This document shows positions 2,057-22,109 of a stretch of 64,000 nucleotides of DNA, piece after piece. The position numbers and the translations under genes are program-made. Numbering within the stretch: the first letter of the stretch is position 1; the number at the start of each line of letters is the position of its first letter. The notes beneath the pieces were generated by a model, which was not told where the DNA came from, searched no databases, and worked only from the letters and a program-made list of their open reading frames with translations. The stretch lies in IMG/VR virus record IMGVR_UViG_3300024346_000008, positions 99,935-163,934 of that record; one strand, given 5' to 3'. This stretch comes from a virus.

Positions 2057-2792
2057 TCGGCAACCTCACCGTTTGCTCAGTTCCACATGTACATTCCACT
2101 GATACATTGAAATTGATATCGGGTACTTTGGTTCGATATTGTTCACGAAGATATCGGGCATCTTTAACTAATAAATTATCCACAAATGCCCAAATCTTTG
2201 CTTTCGACATATCTCCGTTTACCGACTTAATCATTGCCTTTAACCGAGAGGTACTTTCTGATTCTACGTCAGAACTAATTTTCTTCAATGCCTTCAGTTC
2301 TTTATCGATTGTCAATTCATCGCCGCGGGTTAACAACTTTAACGCCACTTCTGCTTTTGATAGCGGAAGTATTAATGTAAATTCACTACTTTCCGTTGTT
2401 TCCGGTGAATTTTCTGTTTCTAATTCTGATAAGTTTATTACCTGTTCTACCGTACTATTACATGACGGACATTCTAATGATACTTCATAATCCTTTCCAT
2501 ATCCAAGAATACGTGCGGCAATCATTACTGCATTTAAATCACCTAAGTACAAGTCTGCCGCTTTCACCCCCTTTGTGGCAATTAAAGCGTCAATCAATCG
2601 ATCCAATACGACACCCTTTTGAATTAAGTTCTGTGAAGTCAAAATATCTTCATGTTTTGCCGTCATGTATCGTAATTCAATTTGCCCACTTCTCAGTGGA
2701 CTATCTTCGGGATAAAATAATCCCTTTGATGGCAAATCAATTGTTTCTGTTGGAAATACATCTACTGTTTCTGTAACTGGTTGGTCTGTCAT
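2019..2792 (-). CDS. Baseplate hub / tail assembly chaperone (T4 gp26-like)
   Basis: IDLPSKG.FY, LRYMTAKHEDIL, CPSC and CTC Zn motifs and C-terminal FFWP; located upstream of the tape measure gene. Confidence 0.8.
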   Translation of the reverse strand: MTDQPVTETVDVFPTETIDLPSKGLFYPEDSPLRSGQIELRYMTAKHEDILTSQNLIQKGVVLDRLIDALIATKGVKAADLYLGDLNAVMIAARILGYGKDYEVSLECPSCNSTVEQVINLSELETENSPETTESSEFTLILPLSKAEVALKLLTRGDELTIDKELKALKKISSDVESESTSRLKAMIKSVNGDMSKAKIWAFVDNLLVKDARYLREQYRTKVPDINFNVSVECTCGTEQTVRLPIGVNFFWPDARV

Positions 2793-2828
2793 AAAACCTC
2801 TCGGATAAAAGTATACTCACTATACATA

Positions 2829-4712
2829 TCAATCTTCTATATTTTCTATCTCAAACTGTTGACGATAATCCATATTAATTCGTTTTACAAACTCTTTAAA
2901 CATGGATTTACTACGTTCGGGGGTAACTAATGCTCCATCAACAATCATATCTGCGGTTGCTTGCTTTTCTTTTAAGGTATCCCGCATGTTTTCATCCACT
3001 GTACCTTCACACATCATATAATACACTTGGACTTGACCCTTTTGTCCAATACGATGGGTACGGTCTTCTGCTTGTTCATGTTCCGCAGGCAACCAGCCCA
3101 TGTCGATAAAGACCACCGTATCAATTGCTTTTTGTAATCCGTCAATGCCCATACCTGCGGCACGTAAACTAAACAATCCTACCTTTGCTTCCCCAGAGAT
3201 TAGTTTATCAATTGATGTTTGCCGTACAGTTCTGTTCATTTCACCAGTTAATAATGCTGCTTTATCTCCATAGTGTTCTGTTAACAATTTTAACGGTTTT
3301 ATATAGCAACTGAAGACCAATATGGACCTATCATTATCAATGAACTCGTCAATCATTTCAATTAATCGTGGTAATTTCTTTTCGATTAAGAATCCCTGCA
3401 ATTTCGGCATATGTTGAATCGACGGGCGTCCATCCATCTTCCATTTCCCAAACATTTCTTTCAACAGTTTGTTATATTCACCTTTTTCGTCCTTGGTGAG
3501 TTCCACATATAAATCGTTACGTTGCTTATTTGGTAATTCTTTCAATACTTGGTCTTTTTTTCGTCGAATTACTAAATCTTTTGTACGATCATGTAAATCT
3601 TGTAGATTCATGGGTGCCGCACCTTTCCATCCACCATATCGTTGGGTAAAATGAAAGAAGTTATTGAATCGTTCTTTATCTAAGAAGTTCAATAAGGCAA
3701 ACGCTTCAATAGGACGGGACATTACAGGAGTGCCCGTCAAGAAAATTGTATATTTTGTTTTTATTCCGGGGTACTTTCGTCGTTCTTTCCACGATCCCAA
3801 AATACTCTTCGCCCGAATGGTTTGTCGGTTCTTTAAATAGGTTGCTTCGTCACACACTAACAAATCAAAGTTTTGGTCACGTAACCAATGATTGTTTTTG
3901 GCAACGGCATCATAATGCGTGATATGAAATTGGTGGTCAAGGTGTCCATCATAGGTTTTACTATCCCAGATCGTTGCATCCTTTCCAGTGAATTTTTTGA
4001 CCTCGCGTTGCCAGTTGACGACCACGCTAAGGGGACATACAATAAGGGTCTTCAAGTTATGTAGTTGGGCATAAGCAATGGCCTGTACGGTCTTGCCAAG
4101 ACCAGGAGCGTCGGCAATTAGACACCTTCCACCTGCTCTATCGACAAACTGCACACCCACTTTTTGATAACCATACAGGTTTAATTTTAATCCTGGTACC
4201 GTGAATGTGGTATCTTCTTGTTCACGGATTTCGTCCAAATCTTCCCGTCGTTCTTGTAATTTCCCTAACAGTTTTTCTGCAGAACTTGACAAGATTGCAT
4301 TGGGAAATGTTTTCATCATTTTGGGCAACTGTACCGAAGGAAATTCCCATCGTTTATCGTCCCCGTTCCATTTTCGTCCATCAATTTCGTACTTAAATTG
4401 TGCCAGTAATGTTTTATCATACGGCATGACAACGTAGGCCGTTTTTGCATCCTTTAAATGAATGTTAATTGGGCCGGTTTGTACTTCTTGGGTTGTCTGT
4501 GGGATATGTGACAGTTTAGTGCGAGGCAATGATAAGTCACTTATGTCCGCATCAAGTAATGCCCGCTTAGATGCTTCTACCCAAACTGCGGGCAATCCTG
4601 GTGTGGAGGTGATCCATTGTAAATACTGCGGGGCAGACCGTCTTACATTTCCTAACGTCTGCCCCGTGTATTTACCCCACGTAAAAATTACTTCGTCTAA
4701 CGACGGATGCAT
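2829..4712 (-). CDS. SNF2/SWI2-family (HARP/SMARCAL1-like) helicase
   Basis: LIADAPGLGKT, IVCPLS, DEA, LTGTP and QAEDRTHRIGQ motifs. N-terminal FTWGKYxGQ..PQYLQW small domain and a GRKWNGDDKRW HARP-like segment. Confidence 0.92.
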   Translation of the reverse strand: MHPSLDEVIFTWGKYTGQTLGNVRRSAPQYLQWITSTPGLPAVWVEASKRALLDADISDLSLPRTKLSHIPQTTQEVQTGPINIHLKDAKTAYVVMPYDKTLLAQFKYEIDGRKWNGDDKRWEFPSVQLPKMMKTFPNAILSSSAEKLLGKLQERREDLDEIREQEDTTFTVPGLKLNLYGYQKVGVQFVDRAGGRCLIADAPGLGKTVQAIAYAQLHNLKTLIVCPLSVVVNWQREVKKFTGKDATIWDSKTYDGHLDHQFHITHYDAVAKNNHWLRDQNFDLLVCDEATYLKNRQTIRAKSILGSWKERRKYPGIKTKYTIFLTGTPVMSRPIEAFALLNFLDKERFNNFFHFTQRYGGWKGAAPMNLQDLHDRTKDLVIRRKKDQVLKELPNKQRNDLYVELTKDEKGEYNKLLKEMFGKWKMDGRPSIQHMPKLQGFLIEKKLPRLIEMIDEFIDNDRSILVFSCYIKPLKLLTEHYGDKAALLTGEMNRTVRQTSIDKLISGEAKVGLFSLRAAGMGIDGLQKAIDTVVFIDMGWLPAEHEQAEDRTHRIGQKGQVQVYYMMCEGTVDENMRDTLKEKQATADMIVDGALVTPERSKSMFKEFVKRINMDYRQQFEIENIED

Positions 4713-4951
4713 TACGCGTCAGTGGGTTCCGTAAGTTCTTCTTCGGTTTTTGGACGAACATATACCATACGTTCCATATCCAACTTCCAACCCGCCTCGG
4801 GGGTTAATCGAAGAATCTGCATCATTTGTGAATTTGATTCTTGAATCTGCTGCAGTAGTTCTTGTTGAAACTTTCGTAACAACTGATTGTTTGTTTGAAT
4901 CAGTTGCTGTAGTGCCAAGGGTACTTCTAATGTTATTTCTGTGTTACTCAT
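4712..4951 (-). CDS. Hypothetical Gln-rich coiled-coil protein
   Basis: 79-aa ORF translationally coupled to its neighbours. Confidence 0.65.
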   Translation of the reverse strand: MSNTEITLEVPLALQQLIQTNNQLLRKFQQELLQQIQESNSQMMQILRLTPEAGWKLDMERMVYVRPKTEEELTEPTDA

Positions 4952-5930
4952 ATAATCCTCGTATGTTTACTTTATTGTCAATCCACTCAAATGTTTTTTT
5001 AATCCCTTCGATCAATGGATAATTCGGTTCCCATTTAAGTAGTTGCCGAATTAATTTATTATCGGACGATCTTCCCCGAACTCCCAACGGACCATTGATA
5101 TGTTTAACACTTAACTGCTTTCCAGAAATTTTCATAATTAAATACGCAAGATCATTGATAGAAATCATTTCTTCTGATCCAATATTAATCGGTTGCTTTA
5201 TATCAGATTGCATCAATTTGATTATACCAGTTATGCATTCATCAATGTATAAAAATGATCTAGTTTGATTGCCGTCTCCCCAAATTTCAATAGTACCTTT
5301 ATCTGTTGCCATTGAAATTTTTCTACATAATGCTGCAGGAGCTTTTTCTTTTCCACCATCCCACGTTCCTTCTGGACCATAAATATTATGAAATCGTGCG
5401 ATCCGACATTCTATACCATAATTTTTATTGTATGCCATGTACAATCGTTCACTAAATATTTTTTCCCAACCATATTCACTGTCCGGATGTGCAGGGTATG
5501 CAGAACTTTCCTCGCAGTTGGGATTTGCTGAATCTAGTTGGTTTTCCTCTGGATATATACAGGCCGACGATGCAAAAAATACTCGTTTAACATTTGCTAA
5601 TACCATTGCTTGTAGTATATTAATATTTATTAACGAAGAGTTTGACATTATATCTGCATCATGTACTCCAGTAAATATATAGTTTGCACCACCCATATCC
5701 GCCGCTAGTTGATATATTTCATCAATATCGGATGTTATTAATCTAACAACATCCGTTTGATTGCGTAAGTCCACAATCGTAAATTTATTTGCATTTGTAG
5801 TAGAAAATTCTGGATATTTGATATCTGCTCCGATGACATAGTGCCCTGCCTCTCGCAAACGTGTAACCAGATGCGATCCTATAAAACCACCTGCCCCACA
5901 TACTAATATTTTTTTCATGGCAATTACCAA
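4944..5930 (-). CDS. NAD-dependent epimerase, GDP-mannose 3,5-epimerase-like (likely start 5918)
   Basis: GAGGFIG, QLAADMGG, SSACIYP, YGWEK, RFHNIYGP..TW.GG.EKAPAALCRK and GVRGR.SDN match the GME subfamily. Confidence 0.88.
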   Translation of the reverse strand: MVIAMKKILVCGAGGFIGSHLVTRLREAGHYVIGADIKYPEFSTTNANKFTIVDLRNQTDVVRLITSDIDEIYQLAADMGGANYIFTGVHDADIMSNSSLININILQAMVLANVKRVFFASSACIYPEENQLDSANPNCEESSAYPAHPDSEYGWEKIFSERLYMAYNKNYGIECRIARFHNIYGPEGTWDGGKEKAPAALCRKISMATDKGTIEIWGDGNQTRSFLYIDECITGIIKLMQSDIKQPINIGSEEMISINDLAYLIMKISGKQLSVKHINGPLGVRGRSSDNKLIRQLLKWEPNYPLIEGIKKTFEWIDNKVNIRGLYE

Positions 5931-6679
5931 TATAAAATTATATTGTCTCCGGTAACAGGTACCTCATTCATTTCATGACAAGATATTTGTTGTTTAAACT
6001 CTACTCTAGATAAACAATCTACGTCATAATAATGGCAGATATTATTATATGTTATATATCCATTCTTAGAATTTTTTAAAATTTTATCGATGTATGTTTG
6101 CTGTATATTACTGGAACATTCCGAAAATGCGTAGTTGCTTATAACAAGATCATATTGATCTACTTCTAGTTCATCTATGACAGAATATACTACCGTATCA
6201 TTTTCACCGATATAACGTTTAGACAAATTCAAAGGTTCTTGTAAATCAACTAACTTATATGAGAGTGGTTTCCATATTTCATTAATCAATTTACATTGTC
6301 CCCCATACCCACCGCCAATTTCTATAATTTTTAATCCATCAAGCGATCCAAATAATTGTTCTAATTCCAATGCAACTTTTAAATATCGCATAGTACTTGG
6401 ACATATCTGTGAAAACTCTTCGTCATAATCTACCAATGATGGAAATCCCACCAAATCATTTCGTTTAGATAGTTCTAAACGCTCCGTGGTAAAATTAGAA
6501 GCAGCTTTAATCCAATCTATATAAGATTTTCCAATATCTACACTAACGTGTTCTAAAATAGCCGTATACACCGAACTTTGTCTAAACCTACGGAATGTTT
6601 CGTCATCCGTTGCTGCCTGTTGGCAAAAATTCTTGTAATCATCATAATCACTTATACTTGTTTTCATAGTTGAATCCAA
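5924..6679 (-). CDS. Putative sugar O-methyltransferase (likely start 6667)
   Basis: SAM motif IIEIGGGYGG; ISNYAFSE; cluster context. Confidence 0.8.
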   Translation of the reverse strand: MDSTMKTSISDYDDYKNFCQQAATDDETFRRFRQSSVYTAILEHVSVDIGKSYIDWIKAASNFTTERLELSKRNDLVGFPSLVDYDEEFSQICPSTMRYLKVALELEQLFGSLDGLKIIEIGGGYGGQCKLINEIWKPLSYKLVDLQEPLNLSKRYIGENDTVVYSVIDELEVDQYDLVISNYAFSECSSNIQQTYIDKILKNSKNGYITYNNICHYYDVDCLSRVEFKQQISCHEMNEVPVTGDNIILYW

Positions 6680-7461
6680 TTGTTACAGTAAATGTCAGTT
6701 GTGTCAAAGTGCGAGTATGCGGGGCCAAACCATATTTTTGGGGCAATTACTATTTTATCTGGGTTATTGTTTAACCATGCACCCCACCAACTAAACGTAC
6801 TGTTGGCTATGATATTGTGATCAGACATACTCAGTAAACACATATCAACGCCCTGTTCATTTGACGTATAATACGCAGTGGGGATATTTAAATTTGTCTT
6901 ACACCACTCAATATCATCAGAAATAACAATAAACTGAGGGTTCATATTTTCAAAATATTCTACGGCAGATGCATAATATGTAGGTGAACATAGTGGATGG
7001 TGATTTGGTAAATCTACATAATCCCCTCGGCGCACATGTATTGATACTATCGGCCGATCTTTATTAAGGGATGATATAATGGTAGTTGCTTTTTCAATTA
7101 TATCATTTTTAAATGTAAATTCTTTTCTAATAAGATCTGAGCAGTGGGTAAAATATTTTTCTGTTTGGAAATATCCATCGAAATCCATGTTATCCGCAAC
7201 TTTTTTAAAAAAGAATCTGTCAAAGTGAAATTGCTCTTCAACATATTTTTTATTAGTATGTATTCCCGCTTCATGGTAAAAATGAGATAATTTGATGTCA
7301 AATATATTTCGTATGGAGAAATTATTATGTGACTTACTATCAATATCCTCATCTATTATAACTCTGTATCCATGCTTATCGCCAACTCCTATTAACATAG
7401 CATATTGAAACATTTGGTTTCCCAATCTTCCTTTGCGTCCAAGAACGTTCATGGTTATCAT
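6664..7461 (-). CDS. Alpha-1,2-fucosyltransferase family (GT11)
   Basis: GRLGNQMFQYA, GYFQ, HVRRGDY, SDDIEWC and NSTFSWWGAWL are hallmark motifs. Confidence 0.93.
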   Translation of the reverse strand: MITMNVLGRKGRLGNQMFQYAMLIGVGDKHGYRVIIDEDIDSKSHNNFSIRNIFDIKLSHFYHEAGIHTNKKYVEEQFHFDRFFFKKVADNMDFDGYFQTEKYFTHCSDLIRKEFTFKNDIIEKATTIISSLNKDRPIVSIHVRRGDYVDLPNHHPLCSPTYYASAVEYFENMNPQFIVISDDIEWCKTNLNIPTAYYTSNEQGVDMCLLSMSDHNIIANSTFSWWGAWLNNNPDKIVIAPKIWFGPAYSHFDTTDIYCNNWIQL

Positions 7462-8234
7462 AATAACTCCAATTGTATATTAGTTGTCGGAACAAACAAA
7501 AAATCACAGTCACTTACTTGTGTAATTGCATATCCCAATTCAAGTAACATAGAAAATTTAGCTGACGTAGAATCTATACTAACTTTTCCAAAATGATCAT
7601 CCCAATTTTCCAACATGATCACCGGTTTACATTTTCTAATTGTATTATATGCACCGAGTATAACATTTTGTTCATATCCTTCAACGTCTAACTTAATAAA
7701 ATCCAATTTATCAAAATTAAACATTTCATCGATAGAAACAAGTTCTATCGGAACTCTTTCATCTTCAGATAAATCAGTTCCTCCAAAATGTAGAGGTATT
7801 CCTAGCGGATTATTTATCAGTCCGGCCCCACCAATATTATGCGAAGGAATAAATCCAAAAGAATCAAATGATTTTTTATCACTTAGACCACAAGTGTATA
7901 CTGTTACATTATCACAGTTATTAATCTGTAAATTTTCTTGTAATAATTGCGCAGACGGTTTTAATGGTTCAAAACAATGTACATGCTTTGCTAATTTTGA
8001 AAAAAATATTGTATGTGTTCCTATGTGAGCACCCCCTTCTAATACAATAGAATCTTTATTAATATATTTTGCAAACGTTTGATGGTTGTGAAGTTCCCAA
8101 GAAACTCCTCTTTGTACAACGTCACTGATAATATCACCCTTGAAAGTTTTAAAAAACGCAGAACTTCCATTACAGTAATTTTTAACTTCGGCTATTTGTT
8201 CAGATATTTCATATTTCATATTTCGTTTATCCAT
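7458..8234 (-). CDS. FkbM-family methyltransferase (likely start 8219)
   Basis: GAHIG, FEP, FIKLDVEGYE..V..GA...I...KP motifs. Confidence 0.9.
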   Translation of the reverse strand: MDKRNMKYEISEQIAEVKNYCNGSSAFFKTFKGDIISDVVQRGVSWELHNHQTFAKYINKDSIVLEGGAHIGTHTIFFSKLAKHVHCFEPLKPSAQLLQENLQINNCDNVTVYTCGLSDKKSFDSFGFIPSHNIGGAGLINNPLGIPLHFGGTDLSEDERVPIELVSIDEMFNFDKLDFIKLDVEGYEQNVILGAYNTIRKCKPVIMLENWDDHFGKVSIDSTSAKFSMLLELGYAITQVSDCDFLFVPTTNIQLELL

Positions 8235-9706
8235 TTTGTATATGAGTTAATTAACACATCTTGATAATTTTCATATTGCTGTGTTATACTTGAGTGGGAA
8301 GGTCGTTGATTAGCTACCAATGGTAATACGGTGTATATATTATGTGAAAGTTGCCTCTGAAGAGCTAGATAGTGTTGATCAATTGCAAAATATTTTTTCC
8401 AATCAAAATTTAAAATTGTATCATAAAAACGGTTCGAGACAATGTATGCGTGTGCACAAAATGCACCAGTTAATATTCCTAAATGTGGACTACATTGTAT
8501 AATAGGTGATATTGCATTTGCCCCCAAGAATAACATATCCCATTTTGGAAGATATGATAACTCCGCTGCAGCCCTATCCAATATTGGTAACAATCTATTA
8601 TCAATAAACTTGCAATCATCTTCCAACACCAACACACTATCCCAATTATTATCTTTTGCTCTTTTAATGGCTTCTAAATGAGACATAGAACATCCGAACC
8701 TAGACTTGGCAACTTTAATGTCTATTTCAGTAAAAATGTTATTACTTTCGTTAATCAGTTGTTCTACAACAGAATCTTCGGGAACGTGTGCATTTATTCT
8801 TGAAACAGAAATTGGAAGATTTTTAATCTCATGTTTAATCTCCACGTTTCTATCTTCTCTATGTTCTAAATTTAAATAAAATCCGTTTGACACTATATCA
8901 GTGAATGTTTGAACTTCAAATTTTGTGTTAAACTTATAGTTGTATTGGTATATTAAACTATTTGGGGAAAAATTTTTTAAATCATCTATATCAATAGTTT
9001 CCCCGCACAAATATCTGGTAGCTAATGCATATGGATTATATTCAATCAATTGCTCTACATCGTAATAATCTACTCGTGCGACAGTATTTATTGCATTTAT
9101 AAAACACGGTGACACTGGATAAAAATAGTGCGGTCTATCTACTATATCTACCGTTGATGCGTTTGGAACAAATATTTTACCATAATATTTAAAGTATCCG
9201 CTGTTTGGTACTGATTCAAAACAATGTTCCCCGTTTGGTATTTTAAATAAATGTGCGTAGGAGTCTCTAGTCCACATATGGACTTGACTGAAAAATCTTT
9301 CTTCTAGGCCAATTTGTTCTATATTACAACTTTTTTTCTGACGATTTAATCCTTTAAATAAATCTAATACACCATCGTCATCAACTTCATATAAATATTT
9401 TAAATCAAAGTCTGTTGTAAAAATGGCGTTATCTGGTAAGACTAAATTATATTGGTCATTAACAAAATAGTCTTCGATATTAATGTCTATATCCGAAACT
9501 TTGATGAAATTGATATATGAAAAATCGTTTCTAAATTTAAATGTTACATCACGGTGAACCCAATTTTCATGTTCTTCATCATCATATAGTATTGTTATTT
9601 TAACGGGAATGTGTGATTGACTAAAGTAAAAAAACGTTTCAAGTAGTGCTCTTGCTTGAAGATCCCTGTTTTTGGTCAATATTATTAAATTAATTATTTT
9701 TTTCAT
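8216..9706 (-). CDS. Two-domain glycosyltransferase: degenerate GT-A N-terminus plus C-terminal GT25
   Basis: YLNLEHREDR, GCSMSH, LVLEDD, LFLG, AHAYIV and AIDQ are GT25 motifs in the C-terminal half. Confidence 0.8.
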   Translation of the reverse strand: MKKIINLIILTKNRDLQARALLETFFYFSQSHIPVKITILYDDEEHENWVHRDVTFKFRNDFSYINFIKVSDIDINIEDYFVNDQYNLVLPDNAIFTTDFDLKYLYEVDDDGVLDLFKGLNRQKKSCNIEQIGLEERFFSQVHMWTRDSYAHLFKIPNGEHCFESVPNSGYFKYYGKIFVPNASTVDIVDRPHYFYPVSPCFINAINTVARVDYYDVEQLIEYNPYALATRYLCGETIDIDDLKNFSPNSLIYQYNYKFNTKFEVQTFTDIVSNGFYLNLEHREDRNVEIKHEIKNLPISVSRINAHVPEDSVVEQLINESNNIFTEIDIKVAKSRFGCSMSHLEAIKRAKDNNWDSVLVLEDDCKFIDNRLLPILDRAAAELSYLPKWDMLFLGANAISPIIQCSPHLGILTGAFCAHAYIVSNRFYDTILNFDWKKYFAIDQHYLALQRQLSHNIYTVLPLVANQRPSHSSITQQYENYQDVLINSYTKWINEI

Positions 9707-10356
9707 AACGTATTATATTGAGTTTTAATTTGATGAAACTGCTCTGTTGACAAGTATTGCAGAGGTTTGTGATATCCCAAGGTTCCTAGTTGGAAAATTG
9801 TTTCCACACTAAACTGTGAGGCGACATCACGAGGCGCCAATTTTCCAATATTGAAGTCGTGCATTTTCTCACAGAAAAAAACATCTTCGCCTTTATTATA
9901 TTCCCATTTGAATCGGTTAAGTACTTCTAACATTATTTCTGGAGTTCTTAGTGATAACCCACCGTTACAACAAAATGGATAATATACTGGATGGTTTGTA
10001 GGTAACGGTGCCCCAACAAAATCATATTCATAAAATTCTTCAATCCCATTTCGTAAGAGGCCACTGTCTCTTTGAAATATTAAAATTTTATCGTAGTTGG
10101 TAAAATGTTTCCAAAAAAATTGTCCATCTTCGTGCGTTAATAACATATTATATCCATGCACAGTATTATCCATCAAAGTTACAGGTAATACATTTACATT
10201 CGGTAATAAAGAAGAATACTGGTTGATATATTTATCATCAGTGAATATAAAATATTCAGTATTTTCTGGTAGATGTGGTACGTGGTTCTGAAACGTACTT
10301 ACCATATCTTCGAAAAAACGTGTTTCTACGATTGCTGCACATAATTTAACTGTCAT
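9703..10356 (-). CDS. DUF5672-like putative glycosyltransferase
   Basis: LIFQRDS, YDFVGAP, NGGLSLR, EDVFF and FSVE...GYHK motifs. Confidence 0.78.
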   Translation of the reverse strand: MTVKLCAAIVETRFFEDMVSTFQNHVPHLPENTEYFIFTDDKYINQYSSLLPNVNVLPVTLMDNTVHGYNMLLTHEDGQFFWKHFTNYDKILIFQRDSGLLRNGIEEFYEYDFVGAPLPTNHPVYYPFCCNGGLSLRTPEIMLEVLNRFKWEYNKGEDVFFCEKMHDFNIGKLAPRDVASQFSVETIFQLGTLGYHKPLQYLSTEQFHQIKTQYNTL

Positions 10357-11318
10357 AAATATGAAATATCTGGTCTTCCGGTTCTTGCTCGGTCAGATAC
10401 CTCTTTGGTTTTAAAATTTATCCCCGCATATTTTTCATATTGTTCAATAGTTCGTTCACTTCCAATTCCATAAATTCCCATTGGAATTTCATTTGTTTGC
10501 ATCAAAAGACTTTCTACTCTTTTAATACTTATATTTTGTAAATGACCCATTTCTCGATAATTGTCATCTGAATAAACTTTTCTGTATGCTCGGTCATGTT
10601 TATGATATGCCATATTTTGTCTTGTAGCATAATGATTATATCCATGTGTAAAAGATCGAACCGCCAAGGTAATTTCTTCACCTAGAAAAAACATATCTGG
10701 GTCATACGGAACATCTCGTATCCATTTACTAGGCCCAAATAAATTACATGCGGTTAAAAAACTATTTAATTCAGGTTGTTCTATATTATCTCTGACATCA
10801 AACATCTGCAACAATAAACTTCCATAAAACTCCGTTGCTCTAGGAACTGCTCGCTTGGAAGAATCTCCCGCCCATTCATTGTTACCGTCTGGTGGGTTCC
10901 ACTGAGATGCTGCACACGATAACAGTGCCTTACTATCGTTCGTTTGATAAAATTGATCAATTAAAATTTCATCCCAATTCTTAATCACAGACATGTGTGA
11001 ATCAATTAACCAAAAAAATTTTTCATCTGTGCGTAGTTCAAACGCTAAACTTCTTGCCCAACACGCTCCCTTTGATTCTTTTGCTGGAACTTTTATTACT
11101 TTCATATTTACACCAAATGAAGGAAGTTTATCAACTTCTTCATCGCCACGTTGCCAACAAATACCTAACGTAATATTTTCCGGGTACTTGGCATTTTTGA
11201 CAATCGACTCAATTGTATATGAAAGTAATGGATCACGGTAACTTGCTATATTTACAAATATTTTATTAGTTGATTGATCTATCATATTGGTAATATCCTT
11301 TCCATACGGTTTATCCAT
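10353..11318 (-). CDS. GT60-family (Skp1/polypeptide alpha-GlcNAc transferase-like) glycosyltransferase, copy 2 (likely start 11285)
   Basis: IFVNIASYRDP, SKGACWAR, IDSH and FLGEEI motifs; ATGA overlap with copy 1. Confidence 0.85.
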   Translation of the reverse strand: MDKPYGKDITNMIDQSTNKIFVNIASYRDPLLSYTIESIVKNAKYPENITLGICWQRGDEEVDKLPSFGVNMKVIKVPAKESKGACWARSLAFELRTDEKFFWLIDSHMSVIKNWDEILIDQFYQTNDSKALLSCAASQWNPPDGNNEWAGDSSKRAVPRATEFYGSLLLQMFDVRDNIEQPELNSFLTACNLFGPSKWIRDVPYDPDMFFLGEEITLAVRSFTHGYNHYATRQNMAYHKHDRAYRKVYSDDNYREMGHLQNISIKRVESLLMQTNEIPMGIYGIGSERTIEQYEKYAGINFKTKEVSDRARTGRPDISYL

Positions 11319-12538
11319 CCTTTTGATTTTGAATGGGGCCAGAATATATATTTGTAAGGTTTTTTAATTGTATTAAATTCTCTCCAAATTTTAATATATT
11401 CTTGACTATTTGTTTTTAATTGCTGTATTTCATCTTCCGATACATCTTTCCGATATAATTCCATTCCATCAATATCTTCAAACGCTGTTACCCATACATC
11501 GTAATCATTTTCTGGCACTTCGTTAAATCCAATATCAATACAATGTTTAAAAATCGTAAGCCACGACTTTTCGTATTCCTCTTCTACAGAATACTGCGGA
11601 TTTGGGGGTAATTTATTATCAAGTGTATATTGTTGAACTGCTCGTTTTTTAAATGAGATTCCGGCATATTTTTCATATTCATTCAATGTTCTGATAGTAC
11701 CGAATCCATATTTCCCAAAGTCTATATTCTGAACTTCGCCATCCATACCAAACAATGTTCTATTTCGTAAATGTGATGTTTTGTTTAGTTCACCCCACGT
11801 TGGATCATCGTCCCATTGCTTAGTTCTTCCTTTTCGTGTATATTCATGCCACGCTATAATTTTGTGTGGATGGAATAAGTCATATCCATGAGTATATGCT
11901 CGTGCAGCAATTGATATTTCTTCTCCATGAAAATAATATTTAGGATCGTGCTGAACTTCGTTTGCAAATTGACCAAGTGTAAATGCAAAATGCGCAGAAT
12001 AAAATCTTGCGGGAATTGGGCAGTCCAATTCAGCGTAGTTGTCAATACTGGATGGTAGAAAAAATACCGCACCTTCTGGAATGAATCTATCAAAATTCAT
12101 TTTCCATGGCGTTGCTTCTCTACCAGCGGGGTCATTTTCTGGATTAAATGATGATATATAACTGGTTAGTAAAGGCTTGGCATATCCTTTTTGCTGAAGT
12201 TGCTTTACCATAGTAATACATTCTACGTCCCAGTTTTTTATAAATCTATGGTGGGAGTCTAGTTGTAATGTATATTTTTCATTATTATATAACTGCTGTA
12301 TCTTATTTCGTGCCCAACAGGCCCCTTTAGATTCTGTAAATGGGATATCTAATATTTTGAATCTAGGGTCATCCGCAAATTCTTTTAGTGAATCCCACGT
12401 ATCGTCAACAGAATGTTGCCACGCAATTCCAAATATTAAATTTTTTGGATATTTTGCGTTACTTAAACAATCCTTTATCGTTGGAATTAATTGTGGATCA
12501 CGATATGATGCAATTTGAATAAAAATTGTATTTTTCAT
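11282..12538 (-). CDS. GT60-family glycosyltransferase, copy 1, with extra C-terminal domain
   Basis: IFIQIASYRDP, SKGACWAR, LQLDSHHRF, FHGEEI and HEYTR motifs. Confidence 0.88.
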   Translation of the reverse strand: MKNTIFIQIASYRDPQLIPTIKDCLSNAKYPKNLIFGIAWQHSVDDTWDSLKEFADDPRFKILDIPFTESKGACWARNKIQQLYNNEKYTLQLDSHHRFIKNWDVECITMVKQLQQKGYAKPLLTSYISSFNPENDPAGREATPWKMNFDRFIPEGAVFFLPSSIDNYAELDCPIPARFYSAHFAFTLGQFANEVQHDPKYYFHGEEISIAARAYTHGYDLFHPHKIIAWHEYTRKGRTKQWDDDPTWGELNKTSHLRNRTLFGMDGEVQNIDFGKYGFGTIRTLNEYEKYAGISFKKRAVQQYTLDNKLPPNPQYSVEEEYEKSWLTIFKHCIDIGFNEVPENDYDVWVTAFEDIDGMELYRKDVSEDEIQQLKTNSQEYIKIWREFNTIKKPYKYIFWPHSKSKGWINRMERILPI

Positions 12539-12583
12539 TTATATAACCTTTTATACTAGTGGAAGTGATTAATATTTAATCTA

Positions 12584-13546
12584 TTAACAACCGTGTGGAC
12601 ATTGTGAATATCCAAATTGAGGACTATCGCATGCTTCACCTTGATACGCTGATACCTCAAAGCACGGTGCCAACTCACCCAATTCCGGTTGCACTGTACA
12701 ACATAATGTAATAAGTGGAATTGTATTAGTTGGTGTGTTAGTTGGTGTATTTGTTGGTGTTGGTGTGTTAGTTGGCGTATTTAGTGGCGTATTTGTTGGC
12801 GTATTTGTTGGCGTATTTTGTGGTGTATTTGTTGGCGTATTTGTCGGTGTATTTGATAGAGTTGGCGTATTAGTTGGTGTATTAGTTGGCGTTGCCGCTA
12901 ACGGTGTATTAGTTGGCGTTGCCGCTAACGGTGTATTAGTTGGTGTCCGTGTTGGCGTATTGGTTGGTGTTGCTGCTAATGGCGTATTTGTTGGTGTTGC
13001 TGCTAATGGCGTATTTGTTGGTGTTCGTGTTGGGGTATTGGTTGGCGTATTAGTTGGCGTATTGGTTGGTGTTGCTCCTGGCGGAGTATTTGTTGGTGTA
13101 TTTGTCGGCGTTGGTGTATTGGTTGGCGTATTAGTTGGCGTTGCCGCTAACGGTGTATTAGTTGGTGTTGGCGTATTTGTTGGTGTTCGTGTTGGCGTTG
13201 CCGTTGGTGTTGCTGTTGGTGTTGATGTTGGTGTTGGCGTAGCTGTTGGTGTTGCTGTTGGTGTTGCCGTTGGTGTTGCTGTTGGTGTTGATGTGGGTGT
13301 TGATGTTGGTGCGGGTACATAACACAAAAAATAATTGCGTGTTTTTGCTGCAATTAATGTATAATTTACTTCGGTATATCCACTTGGGCACGACGAGGAT
13401 GCAATTCCCGCTACACCTGGTTGCCCATATGATGCGGTTAGTGCATAGGCAGGTATCAAGCTTGAACTGTCGATGGCATTTACCCGACTTGCTGTTGCTG
13501 CATAGGAACTAGTAGATGGAATACCAAATGGAAAAAATATACTCAT
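12584..13546 (-). CDS. Mucin-like Thr/Pro-rich virion protein with Cys-rich ends
   Basis: About 200 aa of TPT[NAS]/TPLAA repeats; FFPFG...SSYA N-terminal motif shared with neighbours; C-terminal 6-Cys domain. Confidence 0.8.
12724..13316. repeat. Degenerate 12-bp/27-bp coding tandem repeats (TPTN / TPLAATPTN)
   Basis: gttggcgtatt-type repeats read directly. Confidence 0.9.
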
Positions 13547-13731
13547 ACGAACCCAATCCCCGAAGCAGAAACTGTTCTTGCTGCGGGACCAGTTGGTCCC
13601 ACATACGTAATTGAAAATTGTGCAAGTGATGCAGATGCAGGTGTTGGACCCAATAAAGTAGTTGCATAACTTGCACTCACTGCATATGAACTACTAAATG
13701 GTATACCCAACGGGAAAAAACGAATCGTCAT
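13543..13731 (-). CDS. Small virion protein (FFPLG-SSSYA family)
   Basis: N-terminus paralogous to 12584-13546 and 13741-13983. Confidence 0.7.
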
Positions 13732-13740
13732 ATAAATACT

Positions 13741-13983
13741 CTAATCAAAATTACAAATTTCAACATACCCATCCCCTATTCCTGCTTTTAATATTTCATA
13801 TTGCGCTGCCGTTATTATACACACACTTTTTCCCCGTGACCCTGATTGTGGGAATAATACGATTCCTGCTGTAGATGCGGATACGACCGATTTAATAAAA
13901 CTTGCCGAAATTGCGCAAGATGCGGTCACTGCATAGGATGCGGTATATAACGACCCCGAACCAAATGGATACACTGATAACAT
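13741..13983 (-). CDS. Small virion protein (YPFG-ASYA family)
   Basis: N-terminal motif shared with the two downstream ORFs. Confidence 0.7.
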   Translation of the reverse strand: MLSVYPFGSGSLYTASYAVTASCAISASFIKSVVSASTAGIVLFPQSGSRGKSVCIITAAQYEILKAGIGDGYVEICNFD

Positions 13984-13984
13984 G

Positions 13985-14833
13985 TTAATTTTCTACTGAT
14001 AGTACGTGAATTGATGCCGTCATATTTTGTGCTCCACCGGCAGTTGCCATACTTTGAAATATATAGTATAGTTCATTTGTTCCTTTCGGGACTGTTAATG
14101 AACTTAATATTGTGCCCATGTCCGATAAATTTGCTCCAATAATTTTTGGAATAAAATATGTTGTTTCACTTCCTGTAATAATTGCATCAACAATCAACGA
14201 TTTCATTTGCGATTCCGTTACAAATGACCTATTTTTTTCGGTTGCATCATTGATAGAAGTAGGCGTACTATACAATCGTACACGTGCCGCAGTTGCCGTT
14301 GCATTTAATGACGCACTTACTAATAAGTAGGTCTTTGGAATTGTAGTATTAACAATTGACCCACTAAGTATTTGTCCCACACTTAAATTTCCTGTAATAT
14401 TTGGTAATGATATTCTATTACTCGTACTTATTACTGAATCTTCCAACAAATATGTGTTGAATGTTAGATTTGGATATTGCCCCGACCCCGTATTATCTAC
14501 CCGATAATAGGTCAGTTTTGTATTAGCAGGAGTTACTACCCCGTACATCACAGGATCAATCGTATAGGTACCGACGCTCATTGTAAAATCACCAATCAAT
14601 GCCACTGAGCTTGAAATATTTGTATTACCAAAATTTCTACTTTGTTCACCCGAATTATTGAGACTATCTAACGTATCATATAATCGAACTCTGCATGGGA
14701 AATTTGTTTGAATATTAAGCAATGCATAAGCAGACCCCAACTCCACAGACCCCGAACCAATAATATCAGTTTGTGTGGTTGTTGATTGTCTGACTAATTT
14801 AGCGCCTAATTTAATGTATTCTTTTAATCCCAT
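13985..14833 (-). CDS. Virion structural protein with an internal duplication
   Basis: Two halves each contain SGS...Y.L....RVRLY.T..S.....E..R.F. Confidence 0.7.
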   Translation of the reverse strand: MGLKEYIKLGAKLVRQSTTTQTDIIGSGSVELGSAYALLNIQTNFPCRVRLYDTLDSLNNSGEQSRNFGNTNISSSVALIGDFTMSVGTYTIDPVMYGVVTPANTKLTYYRVDNTGSGQYPNLTFNTYLLEDSVISTSNRISLPNITGNLSVGQILSGSIVNTTIPKTYLLVSASLNATATAARVRLYSTPTSINDATEKNRSFVTESQMKSLIVDAIITGSETTYFIPKIIGANLSDMGTILSSLTVPKGTNELYYIFQSMATAGGAQNMTASIHVLSVEN

Positions 14834-14880
14834 ATATAATCAGTATAAGTTCTTTAGTATAACTAGTTCACAGTTATGTT

Positions 14881-15090
14881 TTAATACGTGGTTGTTACCC
14901 ATGCCGATCCATTCCAAAATTTTACAGGTTTTGTAACCCATGCTGCGCCTGTCCATACTTTCATAGGCTTTGCCACAAATGCTGCTCCTGTCCAGACTTT
15001 AATTTGTCCGGTGGTTCCGCCAGCATCCGCAAGTGAAATGTCAAAGGTACCCGTACCATTATCGCGGAGTTGAATGTCAAAGACTGCCAT
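14881..15090 (-). CDS. Small tail-tip-like protein with three K[VF]W[TN]GxA[WF]V repeats
   Basis: Repeats read directly; fibre-gene context. Confidence 0.65.
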   Translation of the reverse strand: MAVFDIQLRDNGTGTFDISLADAGGTTGQIKVWTGAAFVAKPMKVWTGAAWVTKPVKFWNGSAWVTTTY

Positions 15091-15093
15091 AAA

Positions 15094-17064
15094 TTATGCC
15101 GCACTACCAGTGGCCGACCGACCAATTAATACACTACTTTCCTGTGCTTCTGTATATACCATACCAACCTTATCATACCACGGAATATTATATGTTCCGT
15201 TTCCTGCTCGCGAGGCAGTCCCAATCACTAAATTGTTTGCATCATCGTGCGCAGTAATTACTACCGTTCCACCGCCACTATTGGTAATAGTGCCCGCAAT
15301 TGAAGACGTAATAGCATGATAAGTTGCCATCATATACGATTGAAAAATTGCACCGTTGGTGGTACTTACTTGTAAATTCGTATCATACCGATAATTTCGG
15401 GCAGTTTCAATATCTAACCGATTCGTATCTGGGTCTGTTGGCCACCGTTTCATATCATCTCGGGCCCGTGCAAACATAACAGAGGGTGATATTTCTGCCA
15501 CACTTTGGTAGATGAAATTGTAGAATGGACGAAATCCCGCTCCTTCACCTTCTCCTGCTTGCACTTCTCCGAGAAATGCTGCACCAATTGTTCCTGCTGC
15601 TGTGCCAAATGGCATTAAAATTAATTGATATCCTGCACCGGTTAACCAATAATTAGTTTCGGGAATAATGGGTGTAGTGGTACTTGCTAATTGAACACGC
15701 ATACCTACCGTAGTCGTAGTCCATCCCGTAACATATGGCGTAATTCCCCAAATTGTCGTATGGTTGTGGACCCCATCACCATCCGGATGTATATCACTAC
15801 TATAATTTAAATATAATAACGCGGACATATTGGATGGAATTGTTCCCAGTGTTGTTCCCGTTGCAAACCAATCTACAACCAGTTCACTCTCCTTTCCTCT
15901 TGCTAATGTCATTCCTGCAACACCGCCAACACCACCCGCATCAATTCTACGCATATGTGTTACTGCTCCTGCGCGAGGGCTTGCGGCAGCATGCGCATAT
16001 ACACGACTTGCTTGACTTCCTACACGGAAATCAACGCTCATTGCTCCCGACCCTGCGTATGCCGCTAAAATACCCGATTGTTCTAAGGTAATTGTGCCCG
16101 GTTCTTGAATATTGAATTTACGAGAAAATCGTGATTTGTCATTAGTCGTTGAACCTCCACTTAATCCAGATTCGTCCGTAACAACAACTTGTATACTATT
16201 CATAACTCGGGTACTAGTACTATGGTTATATTCATAGGTTACGACCAATACCCCAGAAAAACATGGCGTTGGTCGTGCGGTTGCCAATGTACATCTTGCT
16301 TGTATACTCTGTGCCGCCGCCGTGGAAAACGAGCCCGAAATTGAATCAATTCTCCGATAGGAAATGTCGGTGTTTAGTGTTGATGCATATGTTAAATCTG
16401 CAAACGTGGTAGTTCCACCGTCATATGATACATCCAAGGTAGAGGTAGTAACCACGGAGGCACCAGTATGTACCAACATTTCAAAAAATATACTTCGGTA
16501 CACTTTGCTTGCTTCGGGCAGAAATGTATTTAACGCAGGAATTTGACTTGCTAATCCACCGACGTTCGCATATGCATTTGTTAACGCACCGTTGTTTCCG
16601 TCTATAGGTATTTTAACCGTTTTAATACGAGTGGTTGCGGCACTATCATCGTATTCATAGGTAATAATAATTTTAGCAGAAGCATTTTGTGTTACGTTTC
16701 CTGTGTTTGTTATACCTACGGTGACCGTTTGACTTGTGCCTGTGAAGTTTGTTTGGAAATATGCGGTGGCGTCACGCAAAAAATGAAAACTTTGATTTTC
16801 ACCACTATTCGTAATAGTTTGTGTGACCGTGTTTGCACTAACCGCAACTGCACCAATTTGCACGTTGGTTAATATTGCGGTTGTACTTGCTGCGGCAGCG
16901 CCACCATCTTGCGAAGAAAAATCAACAATAACACTGCGAAATGTTCTGCTGGTTGTTTCGGGAATATTCACGGTTATTGCGGTAAATGTTCGCAATGTTG
17001 CAGATGCCACTGATGCTGTACTTAATGGAAACGCATATTCAATTGTTTTAGTTCGTAATGCCAT
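15094..17064 (-). CDS. Putative virion structural / receptor-binding protein (656 aa)
   Basis: Thr/Ala/Gly-rich and beta-rich; lies within the fibre cluster. Confidence 0.7.
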   Translation of the reverse strand: MALRTKTIEYAFPLSTASVASATLRTFTAITVNIPETTSRTFRSVIVDFSSQDGGAAAASTTAILTNVQIGAVAVSANTVTQTITNSGENQSFHFLRDATAYFQTNFTGTSQTVTVGITNTGNVTQNASAKIIITYEYDDSAATTRIKTVKIPIDGNNGALTNAYANVGGLASQIPALNTFLPEASKVYRSIFFEMLVHTGASVVTTSTLDVSYDGGTTTFADLTYASTLNTDISYRRIDSISGSFSTAAAQSIQARCTLATARPTPCFSGVLVVTYEYNHSTSTRVMNSIQVVVTDESGLSGGSTTNDKSRFSRKFNIQEPGTITLEQSGILAAYAGSGAMSVDFRVGSQASRVYAHAAASPRAGAVTHMRRIDAGGVGGVAGMTLARGKESELVVDWFATGTTLGTIPSNMSALLYLNYSSDIHPDGDGVHNHTTIWGITPYVTGWTTTTVGMRVQLASTTTPIIPETNYWLTGAGYQLILMPFGTAAGTIGAAFLGEVQAGEGEGAGFRPFYNFIYQSVAEISPSVMFARARDDMKRWPTDPDTNRLDIETARNYRYDTNLQVSTTNGAIFQSYMMATYHAITSSIAGTITNSGGGTVVITAHDDANNLVIGTASRAGNGTYNIPWYDKVGMVYTEAQESSVLIGRSATGSAA

Positions 17065-17079
17065 AGATAAATCCCGATA

Positions 17080-17256
17080 TTATAAGGTATCTCTTCGTAC
17101 TACTTTAATAATGAATTGTGGAACTTCGGTATCCTCGTAGGTGATAATAATTTTCCATAATTCATCTTCTATATAATCTCTAAACAGTATTGGTGTTGCT
17201 GGTGTCAACATTGCTTCATCTACCAACTCCCCAATTTTTTGTGCAAGTAAGCTCAT
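17080..17256 (-). CDS. Hypothetical 58-aa protein (MSLLAQKIGELVDEAML...)
   Basis: My translation; fills the gap between two genes and has an AGGA SD-like sequence upstream. Confidence 0.6.
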   Translation of the reverse strand: MSLLAQKIGELVDEAMLTPATPILFRDYIEDELWKIIITYEDTEVPQFIIKVVRRDTL

Positions 17257-17268
17257 ATATGTGTCCTA

Positions 17269-19967: not shown

Positions 19968-20726
19968 TTAAATTCCGAACCGTGACCGTTGTGCGTTAAA
20001 ATTTTGAAGGATTTCTTGTGGGGACAGACCTCTGTTGTATATAGATACATTCGACAATCTTCCCGTAAAATAATTTCCAGCAGTATTACGACCAATATTT
20101 AAATTATCGGATTGAGTGCCGTATGGTGCACTTTTTGTTATAGTGCCTTGGTCAAGTACACCATTTATATAAATTTGTATATCATTTAAATTTGTGGTAG
20201 TTGTATTTGTGGTATATACGACGGTGACATGTTTCCAGATATCTGCCAGAGTCATTACCGTTGAATTACTTGAATATCTAGTACAACATACGCCTGATGC
20301 ACCATTTTTAATTTCTGCCTTAAGTGCACTCGCGCTATCAAACAGACTAGGAAACCCCCATCCCCATCCACCGGATGTACATCCTTTACTTAAAATATAT
20401 TGAACATTAAGATTAACGAAGCCGGTCTGAGGCCCTACCCATGCACTTGTTGTAAATGTTGTATTAGTAAAATCAAATGTCGTGGGATTTTGTATATTTA
20501 TATACTGAGTTCCTACTGGAGAATTTTCGGCTACTCCTGCAAATTGCAAACTTATCCCAGGTGCACTATTATAAACGGTAATATTATTAAGTAAACTTCC
20601 ACTAGTATTATTTCCACTCAAATCTGTCCATGTGGTACTACCACTAACATATGATTTAGTATTTGCCGCATCAAGATATACTACTAATCCATCGGTGACT
20701 ATTTTTGGAGAATGAATAAACGCCAT
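19968..20726 (-). CDS. LamG/concanavalin-A-like lectin domain protein
   Basis: IVTDGLVVYLDAAN..SY.SGSTTWTDLSG; WKHVTVVY; IYING; IYNRGLS..EILQNFNA...RFG. Confidence 0.88.
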   Translation of the reverse strand: MAFIHSPKIVTDGLVVYLDAANTKSYVSGSTTWTDLSGNNTSGSLLNNITVYNSAPGISLQFAGVAENSPVGTQYINIQNPTTFDFTNTTFTTSAWVGPQTGFVNLNVQYILSKGCTSGGWGWGFPSLFDSASALKAEIKNGASGVCCTRYSSNSTVMTLADIWKHVTVVYTTNTTTTNLNDIQIYINGVLDQGTITKSAPYGTQSDNLNIGRNTAGNYFTGRLSNVSIYNRGLSPQEILQNFNAQRSRFGI

Positions 20727-20729
20727 ATA

Positions 20730-21440
20730 TTATACTCCAAATCTGCCGCGAGTGGCGTTAAAGTTTTGAAGAACTTCGTCGGGAGAAAGTGCTTTATTAT
20801 AAATTTTTACATTATAAATACTACCACTTAGATACGCGGTTGCGTTGCCTCGTTGACCTATAAAAAATGTGTTTGCGTTCACGGTTGCCGCAATAAGGAA
20901 CGAAGACGCACCTTTATTTGGTGCAGCTATTCCATTAAGATACATTTGATATGTTGATATACCATCAAACGTTGCGGTCACATGATATATACTTCCAGTG
21001 GGTATATTTGCTACTGAATAGTTTACGGGGACGCTCCCTACACTATTCAGTACATAAAATATTCTTTCTGAATCGGTTGCTATAGCCAATCCCAATTGTA
21101 CATTTCGTGAACCCGAAGTATATGCTATAATTCTACGGTATGTCGTTGTTAATGCAGACGCAGGAGTGTCTGTTTTCACCATACACTCCAGTGTAAACGA
21201 AGGTGCATTATTAAGTGCAGTTGGATATGAAACATTTACAAAGTCATTCGTTCCATCAAATACAATACTACCACCATTTTCCCCACTAAAGGTTGGTCCG
21301 TTTGTTAAACTTCCACTATTATTATTTCCACTTAAATCTGTCCATGTGGTACTACCACTAACATACGACTTCCGATTGGCGGCATCTAATGCAAGCACTA
21401 ATCCATCGGTGACTATTTTGGGACTATATGATGTAGACAT
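20730..21440 (-). CDS. LamG/concanavalin-A-like lectin domain protein
   Basis: Same architecture: FDGTNDFV, YHVTATFDG, IYNKALS. Confidence 0.88.
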   Translation of the reverse strand: MSTSYSPKIVTDGLVLALDAANRKSYVSGSTTWTDLSGNNNSGSLTNGPTFSGENGGSIVFDGTNDFVNVSYPTALNNAPSFTLECMVKTDTPASALTTTYRRIIAYTSGSRNVQLGLAIATDSERIFYVLNSVGSVPVNYSVANIPTGSIYHVTATFDGISTYQMYLNGIAAPNKGASSFLIAATVNANTFFIGQRGNATAYLSGSIYNVKIYNKALSPDEVLQNFNATRGRFGV

Positions 21441-21441
21441 A

Positions 21442-22083: not shown

Positions 22084-22109
22084 CTTATTTTACCTTTATA
22101 AAAAACATG

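Follow-up and report, generated by a model that had tools for sequence, protein, structure and literature searches.

A sugar-gene cassette directly follows a Thr-Pro repeat gene

We analyzed the last 64 kb (hereafter, the window) of IMG/VR virus record IMGVR_UViG_3300024346_000008, which spans 163,934 bp with an estimated completeness of ~90%, and focused on a cassette of eight sugar genes that directly follows a gene for a threonine- and proline-rich (PT) repeat protein (together, window 4944-13546). Genes for portal, terminase, major head protein and tail sheath were found in the genome. Its major head protein shares 56% identity with its counterpart in Flavobacterium phage vB_FspM_immuto, 51% with that in Microcystis phage Mel-JY01 and 38% with that in Rhodothermus phage RM378, which by sequence identifies the source as an uncultured, distant T4-like myovirus. 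Metagenome runs labelled freshwater and runs labelled 'marine' both contain near-identical DNA, and a megablast search of the cassette against isolate phages gave no match. The cassette opens with two paralogues of glycosyltransferase family GT60, the first of which is a putative N-acetylhexosamine (HexNAc) transferase, and a second PT gene lies at the other end of the window.

12584-13546, minus strand: PT1, putative acceptor protein, 320 amino acids (aa); composition and repeat analysis
11282-12538, minus strand: GT60a, putative initiating polypeptide alpha-HexNAc transferase, 418 aa; PF11397, E=2.9e-74, 251.1 bits
10353-11318, minus strand: GT60b, second GT60 paralogue, 321 aa; PF11397, E=3.9e-52, 178.3 bits
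63291-63998, minus strand: PT2, same TPTN/TPTA repeat family, 5' end cut by the contig end; comparison of repeat DNA

All genes discussed lie on the minus strand throughout. Their order is o755, o656, o282, o80, o62, PT1, GT60a, GT60b, DUF5672, a 496-aa two-domain transferase and an FkbM methyltransferase, followed by a GT11 enzyme, a NanM-like O-methyltransferase, a short-chain dehydrogenase/reductase (SDR), o79 and a SNF2 helicase. From o62 to o79, adjacent genes overlap by 4-37 nucleotides (nt), with the 45-nt gap between PT1 and GT60a as the sole exception; the tail-fibre-like genes (o755, o656 and o282) lead into PT1 with gaps of 1-9 nt and one 4-nt overlap. The original prediction, made from the sequence alone, had described eight tightly coupled sugar genes of these families, and this description held in both the overlaps and the profile matches, which exceed curated thresholds. 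It had also placed the cassette inside the late structural region, and here it needs correcting: the cassette sits at the end of that module, between the tail-fibre-like genes and the SNF2 helicase (2829-4712), i.e., at the junction of the fibre-like and replication modules.

PT1 contains 94 Thr, 61 Pro and 36 'TPT' triplets. It consists of a conserved N-terminal domain of ~85 aa, a TPTN/TPTA repeat stalk of ~197 aa and a Cys-rich C-terminal module of ~45 aa, in agreement with the roughly 200 aa of TPTN/TPTA repeats that had been described in the protein encoded directly upstream of the cassette. The repeat DNA has tandem periods of 12-78 nt, and dense Thr/Pro tandem repeats, as expected of a mucin-type acceptor, are encoded 45 nt upstream of GT60a. 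A Pfam search with PT1 gave no family, and neither a transmembrane nor a signal-like segment was found in it; PT1 and the cassette proteins together show no hydrophobic segments (maximum KD19 < 1.6). The N-terminal domain is also present in four relatives (L208, L167, L007 and L179), where it is joined to other linkers and Cys-rich tips, and a tblastn search with this domain against isolate phages gave no match. A trimer prediction for the N-terminal domain scored 0.00, a value with no bearing on binding. The model of the upstream neighbor o282 (pLDDT 75) has two beta-sandwich domains and matches HA3/HA70, PHM and PRD1 P3 in the PDB at template-modeling (TM) scores of only 0.2-0.3, too weak a similarity for assigning o282 to the virion.

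PT2 had not been mentioned in the original prediction. Its repeat DNA is 72-74% identical to that of PT1 over ~330-370 nt, and PT2 ends in a C-terminal domain of ~115 aa that differs from the C-terminal module of PT1. Directly downstream of PT2 (58707-63233, minus strand) lies a gene for a 1508-aa protein with a cytidylyltransferase-like domain (PF01467) and a PGDYG domain. Residues 258-366 of this protein are homologous to stand-alone open reading frames (ORFs) of ~125 aa that occur 5-10 kb downstream of GT60a in 30/80 other phage loci. We rejected a link between GT60a loci and the 1508-aa protein, as only this module of ~110 aa is common to it and the small ORFs.

The modeled fold of GT60a is closest to mucin-type polypeptide transferases

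GT60a and GT60b both exceed the curated PF11397 cut-off of 21 bits, and GT60a matches phrog_24687 over its full length (E=5.7e-183). GT60a carries an extra beta-rich C-terminal domain (approximately residues 325-415); GT60b, which is 37% identical to GT60a, is without this domain and retains the DSH motif. In GT60a, this motif (D94-S95-H96, a DxH metal motif) and H231, ~135 residues further on, are invariant in 34 aligned sequences. Sequence searches of the PDB with GT60a and with the 496-aa protein gave no hit. An AlphaFold2 model of GT60a (pLDDT 85.9) found as its top PDB fold neighbors the polypeptide N-acetylgalactosamine (GalNAc) transferases GalNAc-T2, T1, T10, T7, T4 and T12, PGANT9 and Toxoplasma GalNAc-T3 (best E=3.5e-9, probability 1.0), and wall-teichoic-acid and GT2 enzymes ranked after these. 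Thus, as modeled, the fold of GT60a is closest to that of the mucin-type polypeptide GalNAc-transferases (GT27). In protists, GT60 polypeptide alpha-N-acetylglucosamine (alpha-GlcNAc) transferases start mucin-type glycans with alpha-GlcNAc on Ser/Thr-rich domains and are the counterpart of the polypeptide GalNAc-transferases (PMC8724618), and the GT60 enzyme Gnt1 adds GlcNAc to a hydroxyproline of Skp1 (PMC6939170).

Relatives of GT60a form at least 7,767 clusters at 90% identity in public metagenomes (~415 aa, 65-80% identical), and the most specific name that any of these carries is 'glycosyltransferase involved in cell wall biosynthesis'. By contrast, GT60a or GT60b found matches in just 4 of 50,697 records of isolate phages. 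Tandem GT60 pairs recur in five relatives (G027, G037, G041, G042 and G044).

PT1-family genes keep a GT60 neighbor while the cassette varies

We fetched the corresponding loci of relatives via the flanking SNF2 helicase. Throughout the clade whose SNF2 is at least 81% identical, a PT1-family gene (N-terminal domain 46-76% identical to that in the window) is followed by a GT60 gene, and the remainder varies, giving four different cassettes. One relative (L208) has the cassette of the window, including GT60a and GT60b, without the epimerase. In a second (L007), the genes behind GT60a are one for DUF3431, two of unknown kind and one for an HtrL/YibB-type protein. Judged by SNF2, the nearest relative is L167 (98% identical), where an SDR gene precedes a 1268-aa fusion ORF (L167:2695-6501, plus strand), in which a protein O-fucosyltransferase-family domain (PF10250) is combined with two or three GT60 domains; its domain content makes it a candidate multi-domain protein glycosyltransferase. 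The GT60 of a fourth relative (L168) is only 43% identical to GT60a. Stalk composition also varies among these relatives.

In the sister clade (SNF2 68-69% identical, ~30 loci), o282 is followed by ~1.2 kb, o79 and SNF2, with neither a PT gene nor a GT60 gene there. One sister-clade genome (G027, 99% complete) carries a GT60 pair at another genome site, directly downstream of a TPT gene. Six genomes (G000, G027, G036, G037, G042 and G044) have their nearest PT gene 0.05-4 kb upstream of GT60, in the same orientation.

Most viral records with GT60 also encode Thr-Pro repeats

To score Thr-Pro repeats we used a DNA pattern for TPTxTPT, with the reversed pattern as a composition control that gave approximately zero hits throughout. 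The pattern was present in 19/26 IMG/VR records found through GT60a, and in 9/9 of those with a completeness of at least 90%. Within the lineage of the window itself, 8 of 11 GT60-bearing records contained it; of the three others, one has a stalk gene of the TPSPV type and two have GT60 near a contig end. The GT60-free records gave no matches: 0/12 among lineage relatives, 0/24 among records found through the GT11 gene (up to 211 kb) and 0/5 among complete capsid relatives, which include phages of 484 kb and 595 kb. Together with two cultured phages (see below), TPTxTPT was found in 29/39 GT60-bearing versus 0/41 GT60-free records and, when restricted to near-complete genomes, in 13/13 GT60-bearing (this one counted) versus 0/9 GT60-free complete genomes. 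Fisher's test on the first 73 records gave p=6e-12; because the records are phylogenetically non-independent, this value overstates the support and sets a ceiling on how strong the evidence can be taken to be.

In the reverse test, we chose 48 arbitrary viral records only by a match to TPTxTPTxTPT and found PF11397 in 16 of them, versus 4/50,697 isolate phage records. Loci centered on a PT gene contained GT60 at the same locus (within 14 kb) in 7 of 120 cases. A Pfam search of nine PT-rich proteins from other GT60-bearing phages found no domains, save one formylglycine-generating-enzyme-like (FGE-sulfatase) domain. This domain belongs to a PT-stalk protein of a GT60-bearing phage (L061:11093-12817, minus strand). 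Another PT-stalk protein, encoded directly upstream of a GT60a gene (L051:7240-9945, plus strand), has a lectin-like N-terminal domain of ~240 aa.

The only cultured phages with a GT60a homologue are those of the Xanthomonas XacN1 group (XacN1 and Xoo-sp13), and both contain TPTxTPT (2/2, 51 hits each). In XacN1 the homologue is ORF334, which is 51% identical to GT60a across its full length, and ORF369, 370, 372, 384 and 325 contain PT-rich linkers; the first three of these come directly after the genes for tail sheath and tail completion. Virions of XacN1 show at least two Schiff-positive glycoprotein bands, for which ORF328 and ORF334 were suggested as the makers (Yoshikawa et al. 2018, PMC5852040). 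In XacN1 and Xoo-sp13 alike, a gene for a 765-aa carbamoyltransferase comes immediately after the GT60a homologue (L005, XacN1 219791-223508; L006, Xoo-sp13), an arrangement that hints at a carbamoylated sugar.

The downstream genes encode putative glycan-extending and glycan-modifying enzymes

The six remaining cassette genes are as follows.

9703-10356, minus strand: DUF5672 protein, 217 aa; PF18922, E=1.2e-28, 100 bits
8216-9706, minus strand: putative two-domain glycosyltransferase, 496 aa; C-terminal half GT25-like (PF01755, E=1.5e-9, residues 276-371)
7458-8234, minus strand: FkbM-family methyltransferase, 258 aa; PF05050, E=3.2e-17; TIGR01444, 86 bits (cut-off 37.7)
6664-7461, minus strand: GT11 alpha-1,2-fucosyltransferase-family enzyme, 265 aa; PF01531, E=2.5e-31; phrog_2644, E=8.5e-81
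5924-6679, minus strand: NanM-like putative sugar O-methyltransferase, 251 aa; TIGR04371, E=1.1e-15, 57.9 bits (cut-off 44)
4944-5930, minus strand: SDR, GDP-mannose 3,5-epimerase (GME) homologue, 328 aa; PDB 2C59/2C54/8SG0

Most of the clusters nearest to the DUF5672 protein are of viral origin, and some include a fused methyltransferase, which we treat as a lead only. The 496-aa protein matches PF01755 at 38.5 bits (cut-off 24) with partial coverage (profile positions 5-104 of 199), and its residues 1-250 match GT-A/GT2-type models at TM scores of 0.5-0.6, likewise a lead only. The GT11 enzyme covers profile positions 32-296 of 298 in PF01531 at 109.5 bits (cut-off 23.9), and its translation contains HVRRGDY, which we take to be the donor-binding motif of GT11 enzymes (HxRRGD). 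The SDR had been labelled GME-like, and the label is well founded: residues 7-321 match PDB 2C59 with E=1.5e-103 (range for 2C59, 2C54 and 8SG0, 1e-100 to 1.5e-103), versus only ~1e-32 for other sugar SDRs, the next-best family being the UDP-glucuronate decarboxylases (2.7e-32). Based on this homology, the epimerase is a likely source of GDP-L-galactose. In PHROGs, the cassette transferases fall in the category 'moron, auxiliary metabolic gene and host takeover'.

The PT stalk is the favored acceptor of the GT60 enzymes

We think it fairly probable that the locus is a phage-encoded, cytoplasmic protein O-glycosylation cassette that carries its substrate gene as its first gene. The pairing of PT1 with GT60 is favored because the two co-occur, because their synteny persists through cassette swaps, because of the GT60a fold, and because genes required for rival targets are missing. 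To this extent, the earlier claim that the GT60s and the Thr-Pro protein form an enzyme-substrate pair gains support, all of it from comparative genomics; PT1 is a putative acceptor on these grounds, and its placement in the virion is suggested by gene position and by analogy to the distant phage XacN1. We advance more tentatively, at slightly less than even weight, the broader proposal that the GT60s genuinely transfer HexNAc to polypeptides and, in the bacterial cytoplasm, decorate the Thr-Pro stalks of virion fibers at high density, and that such 'phage mucins' are widespread and unrecognized in freshwater T4-like and jumbo phages.

Several observations weigh against these proposals. The N-terminal domain of PT1, a putative virion protein, matches nothing annotated. 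Several of the GT60-bearing records are near-identical to one another, and the GT60-free controls come from few lineages. Among near-complete genomes chosen for TPT repeats, GT60 was present in 3/9 and absent from 6/9. Co-occurrence, which the original prediction had put forward as a check, is therefore an asymmetric relation: the presence of GT60 implies PT repeats (29/39 versus 0/41), and PT repeats do not imply GT60, i.e., PT stalks do not require it. One would expect this asymmetry if PT stalks served as the substrate but were also in use without glycosylation or with different enzymes. Tight adjacency of PT and GT60 genes is limited to some lineages. Jumbo phages have scattered PT genes, with a PT-rich ORF within 10 kb on either side of GT60a in 27/80 loci, and an 8-kb fragment (L176) is a counter-example in which a PT gene adjoins o79-SNF2 with no GT60 between them. 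A second count of PT genes near GT60a gave 4/16; proximity in jumbo phages is not clearly above the chance expected from scattered PT genes, and we did not use it as evidence. Finally, the G+C content of the cassette (0.31-0.34, versus ~0.40 in the flanks) resembles that of a mobile accessory island, and clusters for lipopolysaccharide (LPS) or O-antigen typically contain GT25, GT11, methyltransferases and a GDP-sugar epimerase as well.

These last two points are what one would expect if the cassette were an accessory island that alters host LPS, O-antigen or capsule, e.g., to block superinfection or the adsorption of progeny to debris, with the PT gene as an unrelated fiber gene. The PHROGs category of the transferases agrees with such a role, as do the name of GT25 in Pfam (an LPS biosynthesis family) and the general knowledge that GT11, O-methyltransferases and GDP-sugar epimerases are common in O-antigen clusters; cassette content also varies between close relatives, as in O-antigen islands. 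However, the cassette has no membrane segments, and among its proteins we found no Pfam family of a flippase, a polymerase, or a priming or Gtr-type transferase. The characterized GT60s have protein acceptors only (PMC8724618, PMC6939170). Host-surface remodeling would also leave unexplained both the association of GT60 with TPT repeats, which GT11-bearing, GT60-free phages do not share, and the constancy of the GT60 neighbor of PT1 through cassette swaps. We regard remodeling of the host surface by the locus as a whole as unlikely, while a part in LPS or capsule remodeling is possible for the downstream enzymes.

We likewise judge it improbable that the system glycosylates protein but builds no virion coat, with PT-rich proteins acting outside particles (e.g., released at lysis) or with other phage or host proteins as the acceptors. 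A protein acceptor has the same evidence behind it here as in the case of a glycosylated fiber stalk, neither the N-terminal domain nor the o282 comparisons place PT1 in the virion, and the PT-rich proteins of GT60-bearing phages are very diverse, including lectin-like ends and the FGE-sulfatase domain. What argues for the virion is that PT1 closely follows the tail-fibre-like genes, that in XacN1 the genes for tail sheath and tail completion are directly followed by the PT-rich ORF369-372, and that XacN1 virions carry glycoproteins (PMC5852040).

A further possibility is that the glycans are attached to phage DNA at hydroxymethylated bases, the arrangement known from T-even phages; multi-transferase DNA glycan systems of phages exist (PMC12619734, citing Pyle 2024), and in XacN1 and Xoo-sp13 a few kb separate the GT60a homologue from genes for DNA polymerase and RNase H. 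A search for PF00303 (thymidylate-synthase/dCMP-hydroxymethylase) found no match in the 164-kb, ~90% complete genome, versus matches in 10/14 reference genomes in a control search, and DNA glycosylation would therefore be without its prerequisite. DNA modification also does not account for the link to TPT repeats, we know of no GT60 enzyme that acts on DNA, and we consider this explanation very improbable.

A candidate route to glycosylated fiber stalks

Under the favored reading of PT1 as acceptor, PT1 and probably PT2 would be made late in infection, each comprising a long Thr-Pro stalk between an end that is anchoring or folded and a tip that is small and serves binding. One or both of the soluble GT60s would then move HexNAc from a UDP-sugar onto many stalk threonines in the cytoplasm. 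By homology to the protist GT60s that start mucin-type glycans, the first sugar may be alpha-GlcNAc from UDP-GlcNAc. The GT2-like/GT25 enzyme, GT11 and perhaps DUF5672 could extend the glycan, with GT11 drawing on GDP-L-galactose, or on a similar GDP-sugar, supplied by the epimerase, and the two methyltransferases could cap it. The sugars and their order, including the methylated (L-Gal/Fuc)-Gal-GlcNAc structure proposed earlier, are read from family names only and are putative. The expected outcome would be a hydrated stalk of bottle-brush form that resists proteases and most likely belongs to a fiber of the virion.

If this is correct, mucin-type initiation exists outside eukaryotes, and the phage enzymes would be the first prokaryote-world counterpart of the GT60 and GT27 enzymes that start eukaryotic mucin-type glycosylation. 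A function would be gained for a very large and strongly conserved phage family (65-80% identity across T4-like and jumbo phages) that has so far been annotated only as a 'hypothetical' or 'cell wall' transferase. Many Thr-Pro 'linkers' of environmental phage fibers would be glycan-bearing stalks, the glycan-building genes behind GT60 would be swapped between close relatives much like O-antigen genes, and XacN1 would serve as a culturable model. Such stalks would bear on virion stability, protease resistance, adhesion to host and particle surfaces, and host range.

Other features of the window

Scans for sigma-70 promoters and terminators in window 2500-17500 gave counts at or below the shuffled expectation. 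The motif TATAAATA occurs at 14 sites in the window (e.g., 13731, 19956, 39248, 44786, 55805 and 63259) versus 9.6 expected, which is not significant. It lies on the plus strand at 13 of the 14 sites, a strand bias, and mostly in intergenic positions, and the genes are all on the minus strand. Read in gene direction the motif is TATTTATA.

Two very large ORFs of 2363 and 1361 aa occupy the fiber region (22828-29919 and 31941-36026, both minus strand) and have almost no family matches; in the 2363-aa ORF, only the last ~200 aa match PHROGs, with function unknown. Four tandem genes of 213-252 aa lie at 19968-22826 (minus strand), and at least two of them encode Laminin_G_3/ConA-like lectin-fold proteins with weak similarity to a sialidase N-terminal domain. 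From their sequences, these genes resemble a paralogous array for virion proteins that bind carbohydrates.

Comparison with known glycosylation systems

Virus-encoded self-glycosylation is known from chloroviruses, mimiviruses and, since 2023, mycobacteriophages, and in phages it is still regarded as rare. Our full-text literature search found no description of GT60/PF11397 paired with phage Thr-Pro repeats or of their O-glycosylation. The gene set is probably a previously undescribed variant of virus-encoded protein glycosylation, for which the comparative support is unusually strong.

The mucin-type O-glycosylation of protists such as Dictyostelium and Trypanosoma cruzi shares with the phage system the PF11397 family, a dense Thr/Pro tandem-repeat acceptor, several GT60 paralogues per genome and the lack of a ricin-type lectin domain (PMC8724618). 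Unlike the protist enzymes, the GT60s here are phage-encoded and soluble with no membrane anchor, their predicted site of action is the bacterial cytoplasm instead of the Golgi, GT60a has its own beta-rich C-terminal domain, and the extension enzymes belong to other families; the phage activity is predicted only.

The Skp1 pathway builds the core Fuc-alpha1,2-Gal-beta1,3-GlcNAc-alpha1-Hyp (Hyp, hydroxyproline), started by the GT60 enzyme Gnt1 (PMC6939170). It resembles the phage system in being cytoplasmic and started by a GT60, and the order of a HexNAc starter, a two-domain transferase and an alpha-1,2-fucosyltransferase-type enzyme is reminiscent of it. Unlike the phage system, whose candidate acceptor has ~90 Thr, the Skp1 pathway depends on a prolyl 4-hydroxylase and acts on a single residue in a single protein. 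A search for this hydroxylase (PhyA-type, PF13640) gave no match in the 164-kb genome, and a Skp1-like hydroxyproline route would therefore be without a phage prolyl hydroxylase, although a host enzyme might take its place. The extension enzymes also differ, being a GT25-like enzyme and GT11 in the phage and GT2/GT74 in the Skp1 pathway.

In mycobacteriophages, as in the reading we favor, phage transferases act on the phage's own structural proteins and their genes lie near structural genes (Freeman et al. 2023, as summarized in PMC12619734); there, the glycans sit on the C-termini of capsid and tail-tube subunits, versus a candidate repeat stalk and a GT60 starter here. Chlorovirus PBCV-1, with its capsid protein Vp54 (cited in PMC5852040), likewise has a virus-encoded, soluble glycosylation machinery outside the endoplasmic reticulum and Golgi, but it is a eukaryotic virus with atypical N-linked capsid-protein glycans and different enzyme families. 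XacN1 shares the GT60a homologue (ORF334), many PT-rich proteins and Schiff-positive virion glycoproteins, although in the available part of that report its authors neither identified the glycoproteins nor tied them to PT repeats (PMC5852040). It differs from the phage described here in being a 385-kb Rak2-like phage of a gammaproteobacterium, with scattered PT genes and a single GT60 beside a carbamoyltransferase.

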